Below are positions 51,546-51,944 of a DNA stretch of 64,000 nt, piece after piece (the first letter of the stretch is position 1; every line of letters starts with the position of its first letter). Made by a program: the position numbers and the translations under genes. Under the pieces are notes generated by a model that worked only from the letters and a program-made list of their open reading frames with translations, was not told where the DNA came from and made no database searches. The DNA is from Escherichia coli (lineage in GTDB: Bacteria; Pseudomonadota; Gammaproteobacteria; Enterobacterales; Enterobacteriaceae), in NCBI RefSeq assembly GCF_003334305.1, contig NZ_QOWS01000002.1. The stretch is one strand, 5' to 3'.

Positions 51546-51553
51546 ATGCCCTC

Positions 51554-51668
51554 GTCGCATCAGGTAACCTTGCCGGTACCTGATGCGCTCCGGATTCTGT
51601 GGGTCGGATAAGGCGTTCACGCCGCATCCGACATTCGAGCATCAATGCCTGATGCGCCTCTTATCAGG
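51554..51668. repeat. REP-like palindromes between ycfP and ndh
   Basis: Three inverted repeats including GTCGGATAAGGCGTTCACGCCGCATCCGAC (51604-51633). Confidence 0.6.
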
Positions 51669-51794
51669 ACGACCAAACGCCCTCGATATACGCTTCACCC
51701 TATATCGCCCTTCCGGACTTGCTCAAATAATAAACAATAAACTCTGTTTTTTGATCTCACCCGGTAAAGTCGCCTATCTTTTCAGCAACAAAAC

Positions 51795-51808
51795 TTGATT
51801 AACATCAA
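51795..51808 (+). promoter_or_regulatory. FNR-type site in the ndh promoter
   Basis: TTGATTAACATCAA matches the FNR dyad TTGAT-N4-ATCAA; ndh is known to be FNR-repressed. Confidence 0.55.
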
Positions 51809-51944
51809 TTTTGGTATGACCAATGCACCATTCATGTTATTCTCAATAGCGAAGAACATTTTCATTGCTGTAACCTGTTGTTAATTAAGAGCTATGTTAA
51901 TAACCATTAATTAACAATTGGTTAATAAATTTAAGGGGGTCACG

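Follow-up and report, generated by a model that had tools for sequence, protein, structure and literature searches.

A REP cluster adjoins the known ndh control region in the ycfP-ndh spacer of an Escherichia coli genome

What does the spacer between ycfP and ndh contain, and which part of it serves the control of ndh? We addressed this question in a window of 64,000 nucleotides, that is, the whole stretch of DNA analysed (contig NZ_QOWS01000002.1 of the E. coli assembly GCF_003334305.1). RefSeq annotates ycfP upstream of the spacer and ndh (NADH-quinone dehydrogenase, NDH-2) downstream of it. The last base of the ycfP stop codon is 51545 and the TTG start codon of ndh, from which 14 N-terminal residues were read in the translation, is located at 51945. 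A reading made from the letters alone, hereafter the sequence-only reading, had described a spacer of roughly 400 bp; its coordinates bracket exactly the 399 bp from 51546 to 51944. We are highly confident that this spacer joins two unrelated things, a cluster of repetitive extragenic palindromes (REPs) and the known regulatory region of ndh. The features, coordinates, statistics and conservation given below were computed in this analysis, while protein occupancy and regulation were taken from the literature on the K-12 sequence, which is identical here.

The 701-bp stretch from 51400 to 52100 is 100% identical to strain E2865 and has matches in 5426 of 5426 complete E. coli genomes; the lineage of the window is identical to this bovine strain and to O157:H7 strains. 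Positions were converted to K-12 coordinates by adding 1,114,140 for U00096.3 or 1,113,363 for the older U00096.2. From 51722 to 51950, which covers -130 to the ndh start codon, the sequence is identical to that of K-12, and the 23 substitutions that separate the two spacers all fall inside 51593-51721. Most of them lie in a polymorphic patch between the REPs and the control region (51668-51721), a hypervariable segment with ~20 differences from K-12 in 54 bp. The base composition of the two parts also differs: GC content is 57% in the REP part (51546-51676), 32% in the control region (51722-51944; 29% in the leader and 24% in its inverted repeat) and 52% in the whole window (1-64000). The 223-bp control region is single-copy, with at least 99% identity in 4067 of the 5426 E. 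coli genomes. A 71-amino-acid open reading frame at 51583-51798, spanning the REPs and the polymorphic patch, was judged spurious.

A REP is an imperfect palindrome of ~35 bp whose head reads GCC(G/T)GATGCG and whose tail reads CTTATC(C/A)GGCCTAC. We typed the elements by aligning them locally with the consensus sequences of Y, Z1 and Z2 REPs, which we take to be those of the Gilson and Bachellier papers, and by blastn; a rigid full-length pattern with a fixed 11-nt loop proved too strict and gave no matches. Three REP-like palindromes had been claimed from the letters, and three are present within 51553-51673 (A, B and C). Palindrome A (51553-51590, strandless) is CGCATCAGGTA-N10-TACCTGATGCG, with perfectly complementary 11-bp arms at 51556-51566 and 51577-51587. 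It is not a full REP, and matches the consensus only as two head fragments placed face to face (CGTCGCATCAGGTA ... TACCTGATGCGCT within 51553-51590; CGTCGCATCAGG and CCTGATGCGCT in the consensus comparison), an arrangement kept in four Escherichia species. Unit B, on the minus strand at 51599-51632 (GTGGGTCGGATAAGGCGTTCACGCCGCATCCG), aligns as a Y-type REP and agrees with the Y consensus at 30 of 32 positions. Unit C, on the plus strand at 51647-51673, aligns as a Z2-type REP with a shortened loop. Other Escherichia alleles have a loop that is 8-9 nt longer.

Units B and C, which both match the head and tail sequences of REPs, face each other as a head-to-head Y/Z2 pair of BIME-2 type. The pair is extragenic, between ycfP and ndh, and multicopy: further copies lie in the window, and the REP part, assessed with a 135-bp segment across the 5426 E. 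coli genomes, recurs in at least 40 places per genome; most genomes hold this segment at 90-95% identity to the window. With BIME-2-type clusters it shares the extragenic position, the Y and Z2 units placed head-to-head 12-14 bp apart, the imperfect palindromes and the many copies. It differs from them in having just one Y/Z2 pair, a Z2 loop that is shortened relative to other Escherichia alleles and a first palindrome that is a non-canonical chimera of two REP heads. The Rfam family naRNA4 (RF02564), itself derived from REPs, matched 51602-51670 with 51.8 bits on the plus strand and 43.5 bits on the minus strand, below the gathering threshold of 59.5; these matches on both strands are explained by the Y/Z2 pair. 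As RNA, the REP segment is predicted to form strong hairpins (z = -3.8). Elsewhere in the window we observed a REP cluster with a Y/Z-like pair at 31796-31860 and a second pair just 3' of ndh, at 53262-53350, composed of a Y-like unit followed by a Z1-type unit (GTAGGCCTGATAAGACGCGTTAAGCGTCGCATCAGGCA); REP clusters thus lie on both sides of ndh.

To compare the locus across species, we searched with a degenerate pattern of the Ndh N-terminus and obtained 46 loci, from the genera Escherichia, Salmonella, Citrobacter, Intestinirhabdus, Pantoea and Mixta. The sequence upstream of ndh was long enough for a comparison with the window at 43 of them (44 sequences in all), and identities were calculated for 24 enteric-type species and for 19 species of Pantoea or Mixta. 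We found the REP cluster in E. coli, E. albertii, E. whittamii and Escherichia sp. MOD1, with spacers of 398-410 bp; it is absent from Salmonella and Citrobacter (spacer ~246 bp) and from Pantoea (spacer ~211 bp). Given this genus-limited presence, the cluster is an insertion specific to the genus Escherichia at the 3' end of ycfP and not a conserved part of ndh control. Downstream of the place that the REPs occupy in Escherichia, the Salmonella and Citrobacter spacers carry a GC-rich hairpin with a T-run behind it, AACCAGCCTTCGGGCTGGTTTTTTT, which we examined ~200 bp upstream of ndh at loci L016, L039, L038, L036, L033, L003 and L008 and read as an intrinsic terminator after ycfP.

The absence of this hairpin from Escherichia, where the REPs may take over the formation of the ycfP 3' end, could be combined with the location of the REPs 180-300 bp upstream of the ndh start site and with their retention in four of four Escherichia species to propose that the cluster takes a functional part in regulating ndh, for example through gyrase or IHF binding or as insulation from ycfP read-through. 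We consider this very unlikely, since Salmonella, Citrobacter and Pantoea have no REPs and yet keep the FNR site and the -10 element, and, within E. coli, no other part of the spacer varies as much as the REP segment. In addition, sequence beyond about -130 is reportedly not needed in dissections of the ndh promoter, which also counts against such a role. Nothing that we found here links the REPs to ndh control. The cluster is a copy of the dispersed extragenic palindrome family of E. coli and, judging from the general properties of this family, most likely forms stem-loops by which the ycfP transcript is protected or ended.

The remainder of the spacer, 51722-51944, is the published and well-studied control region of Pndh. 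The FNR dyad pointed out by the sequence-only reading is a perfect TTGAT-N4-ATCAA at 51795-51808 (FNR I, TTGATTAACATCAA), centred at -50.5. It is the only perfect match in the 64-kb window, where we estimate that ~0.06 would be expected by chance; dyads with at most one mismatch number 7 against 2.3 expected. It coincides with the published FNR site: Myers 2013 lists TTGATTAACATCAA at U00096.2 position 1,165,158 (51795 in the window), at -50.5, with 15.88 bits and a ChIP-seq peak, and presents ndh as an example of direct FNR repression in which sigma-70 occupancy is lost without oxygen in K-12. The supplement of the same paper also gives another, weaker FNR ChIP peak under the name ycfP, at 1,164,183 (~50820 in the window), a position within the 3' end of the nagZ gene, which precedes ycfP; the only FNR-like match near it was CTGTCACCGATCAA at 50828, with three mismatches.

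Both FNR half-sites are 100% conserved in 44 of 44 sequences (E. coli and 43 other species; identity 1.00 in the enteric-type and 1.00 in the Pantoea/Mixta group), and the dyad lies 146-151 bp before the start codon at all loci compared. The 4-bp spacer between the half-sites takes 12 forms in the 44 sequences, with an identity of 0.54 and 0.24 in the two groups, respectively. This pattern suggests that the half-sites are under selection and that the spacer is free to vary. On the published data for K-12, whose sequence is identical here, the operator at 51795-51808 would shut off ndh without oxygen. Further upstream, at 51751-51764, we located another FNR half-site, TTGATctcacccgg, centred at -94.5 (sequence and position computed here), whose TTGAT was found, among the species compared, only in Escherichia. 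We take it to be the 'FNR II' of Meng et al. 1997. At the spot of the Salmonella and Citrobacter terminator, Escherichia keeps only the T-run, which overlaps this Escherichia-specific half-site (TTGATCT).

Three elements of the control region had gone unmentioned in the sequence-only reading: the FNR half-site at -94.5, the extended -10 element and a PdhR box. The ROSE paper placed the start of Pndh at K-12 position 1,165,992 (51852 in the window) and gave its promoter as TTGGTA-21-TATTCT, which map here to 51811-51816 (TTGGTA, the published -35) and 51838-51843 (TATTCT). The published gap of 21 bp departs from the 16-18 bp that separate the two hexamers of a sigma-70 promoter. A TG is located one base 5' of the -10 hexamer, giving TGtTATTCT on the plus strand at 51835-51843, and the start site lies within the 5-9 nt downstream that are typical of an extended -10 promoter. 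Every genus sampled keeps both the TG and the hexamer (identity 0.98 in the enteric-type and 0.89 in the Pantoea/Mixta group). Because 21 bp exceeds what a normal -35/-10 pair can span and the TG is conserved, we infer that Pndh is an extended -10 promoter. A generic promoter and terminator scan of 51400-52050 found nothing: the sigma-70 scan fails for want of a usable -35, and the terminator scan because E. coli does not have the terminator hairpin of Salmonella.

The PdhR box, TTGGTATGACCAA at 51811-51823 (-41 to -29), overlaps the -35 region. Compared with the operator consensus AATTGGTnnnACCAATT, the sequence ttTTGGTatgACCAATg contains the 13-bp core without a mismatch, as no other site in the window does, and the box is 100% conserved in Escherichia, Salmonella, Citrobacter and Intestinirhabdus; the identity of the core is 1.00 in the enteric-type and 0.65 in the Pantoea/Mixta group. 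Anzai 2020 scored the box ttTTGGTatgACCAATg at 11/14 and showed a gel shift. The published support for it comprises genomic SELEX, gel shift and the derepression seen when pdhR is mutated or pyruvate is supplied, and adaptive mutations in the box have been published to raise ndh expression.

The transcribed leader of ndh is 93 nt long (51852-51944, plus strand) and is followed by the TTG start codon, which together with the Shine-Dalgarno sequence AAGGGGG occupies 51933-51947 on the plus strand. A run of TTAAT/ATTAA palindromes had been reported just before ndh. The palindromes are indeed present at 51901-51930, the AT-rich string quoted in that reading; as a correction, they lie not upstream of the promoter but in the transcribed leader (+46 to +79). 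The motif GTTAATWAA has four matches in the whole window and three of the four lie within 50 bp at this string, which is part of an inverted repeat with a GC content of 24% and 25-nt arms of 80% complementarity. With regard to ArcA, the palindromes are better described as direct repeats on the minus strand, phased by 11 bp: three TGTTA-like elements make up the ArcA-P site at 51897-51928 (TTATTAACCAATTGTTAATTAATGGTTATTAA, +46/+77), their plus-strand counterparts TAACC, TAACA and TAATA starting at 51901, 51912 and 51923. In the supplementary material of Park 2013 that bears on ndh (seemingly Tables S3, S4 and S7), ChIP-chip and ChIP-seq ArcA peaks are reported at ndh, along with an ArcA box of 18.7 bits at +46/+77 whose repeat elements score 3.6, 12.5 and 8 bits. 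The 32-nt ArcA sequence given there equals 51897-51928 exactly (reverse complement TTATTAACCAATTGTTAATTAATGGTTATTAA), and its three minus-strand repeats are those located here. The AT-rich block is therefore the published ArcA-P site, with in vivo binding taken from the literature, where the in vitro and in vivo reports on the net effect of ArcA on ndh are inconsistent.

Repeats of this kind could also arise as a functionless by-product of low GC: the leader has a GC content of 29%, TTAA-type palindromes are frequent in AT-rich DNA and IHF-like motifs are marginally enriched window-wide (66 matches against 52 expected). The conservation of the region argues strongly against this explanation. 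In the 24 enteric-type species the left and right arms of the inverted repeat have identities of 0.95 and 0.99, against 0.72 for the loop and the 0.54 of the FNR spacer, and even in Pantoea the skeleton of the repeats is kept (0.70, 0.77 and 0.54 for left arm, right arm and loop in the Pantoea/Mixta group). The published ArcA ChIP peak, in the tables of Park 2013 mentioned above, lies exactly at the repeats. Conservation in blocks is the pattern expected of working operators, which these sites would then be, and it rules out the dyads as a product of composition so far that we see hardly any chance for such an origin.

Could the leader act as RNA? The imperfect inverted repeat extends from 51871 to 51924 on the plus strand (+20 to +73), with arms at 51871-51888 and 51907-51924, and it might mainly be a hairpin of the mRNA that sets its stability or the efficiency of translation from the weak TTG codon, in addition to, or instead of, protein binding on the DNA. 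RNAfold predicts a 17-bp stem of -17.3 kcal/mol in E. coli (z = -2.1 to -2.5) and a longer, nearly continuous helix in Salmonella (z = -4.3). Across 38 distinct sequences 89-91% of the cells are paired, three to four pairs have changed on both sides (for example, AATT/AATT to AGGT/ACCT in Intestinirhabdus) and the one-sided changes are all compatible with G-U pairing on the sense strand; the retention of the TTG start codon in 43 of 44 sequences can be added in its favor. A control in which the pairing was slid by one position yielded equally many double changes, so this covariation is not distinctive in repetitive AT-rich sequence. Moreover, the consensus fold energy is only -3.5 kcal/mol, the Pantoea and Mixta leaders fold no better than shuffled sequence (z ~0), and 9 nt separate the end of the hairpin from the Shine-Dalgarno sequence, which is left uncovered. 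Both arms are also already explained by the ArcA site and by near-consensus IHF motifs, and a literature search for post-transcriptional control of ndh did not find any, nor anything relevant on sRNA or Hfq control of the gene.

We thus consider it unlikely that the inverted repeat works mainly as an RNA hairpin, and rather improbable that hairpin and conserved TTG together constitute an undescribed post-transcriptional layer of ndh control. An RNA-level role is possible, and the predicted folds argue for it weakly. As separate observations, the helix is longer in Salmonella and Citrobacter, and the start codon, TTG, is a rare one that in the comparison with loci L003-L048 is shared by Escherichia, Salmonella, Citrobacter, Pantoea and Mixta and replaced by ATG only in Intestinirhabdus. 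A 6-codon upstream open reading frame from the ATG at 51894 was rejected, as E. albertii, C. koseri and S. diarizonae have lost this ATG.

Each arm of the inverted repeat carries a near-consensus IHF motif, TAACAA-N4-TTA, and three one-mismatch matches to the IHF consensus WATCAANNNNTTR cluster at 51871-51927, with no exact match and a weak enrichment in the window as a whole. IHF sites of the ndh promoter presumably lie at +26, -17 and -58, and Fis sites at -123, -72 and +51, the latter being, we assume, those of Jackson et al. 2004. The proposal of the sequence-only reading that several factors control this promoter is well founded: FNR and ArcA-P sites are published, IHF and Fis are reported to act, and the literature places IHF, Fis, NsrR, PdhR and HU at the ndh promoter. 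The conservation of the leader between +56 and +93 extends beyond the published ArcA site, and the published sites may not explain all of it; outside that site, conserved blocks lie at +1 to +19, +20 to +37 and +78 to +93.

The following sequence of events would fit these data. RNA polymerase with sigma-70 would start transcription at 51852 from a promoter that relies on its extended -10 element (TGnTATTCT). Without oxygen, FNR dimers would occupy the perfect dyad at -50.5 and, in Escherichia, the half-site at -94.5 as well, turning the promoter off. PdhR, sitting over the -35 region, would repress unless pyruvate is present. Phosphorylated ArcA would bind the three repeats phased by 11 bp, early in the transcribed region (+46 to +77), and IHF, Fis and NsrR would supply growth-phase and nitric-oxide inputs.

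NADH dehydrogenase II, the product of ndh, sets the energy conserved per NADH in E. coli, and Pndh is a classic case of many regulators packed into 200 bp. Its rediscovery from raw sequence indicates that the first reading was sound and brings no new biology. The comparison adds some small extras, namely an FNR I site that is invariant from Escherichia to Pantoea, an FNR II site and a REP cluster that are specific to Escherichia, an extended -10-like promoter, and the conservation of the leader inverted repeat and of the TTG start codon.

Among known systems, the closest is Pndh of K-12 itself, as described by Spiro, Green, Guest and colleagues, Myers 2013, Park 2013 and Anzai 2020. The sequence is identical from -130 to the start codon, and the start site, the FNR site, the PdhR box and the ArcA repeats are all shared at their published coordinates; only the region of the REPs and the polymorphic patch (51593-51721) differs, by its 23 substitutions. 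With other promoters regulated by both FNR and ArcA, such as nuo, cydAB, yfiD and pdhR-aceEF-lpd, the ndh promoter shares its oxygen/redox control through an FNR dyad and multi-repeat ArcA sites. Unlike these promoters, at ndh FNR represses from -50.5, which is normally an activating position, and the ArcA site is placed not across the promoter itself but a good distance 3' of the transcription start (+46/+77).
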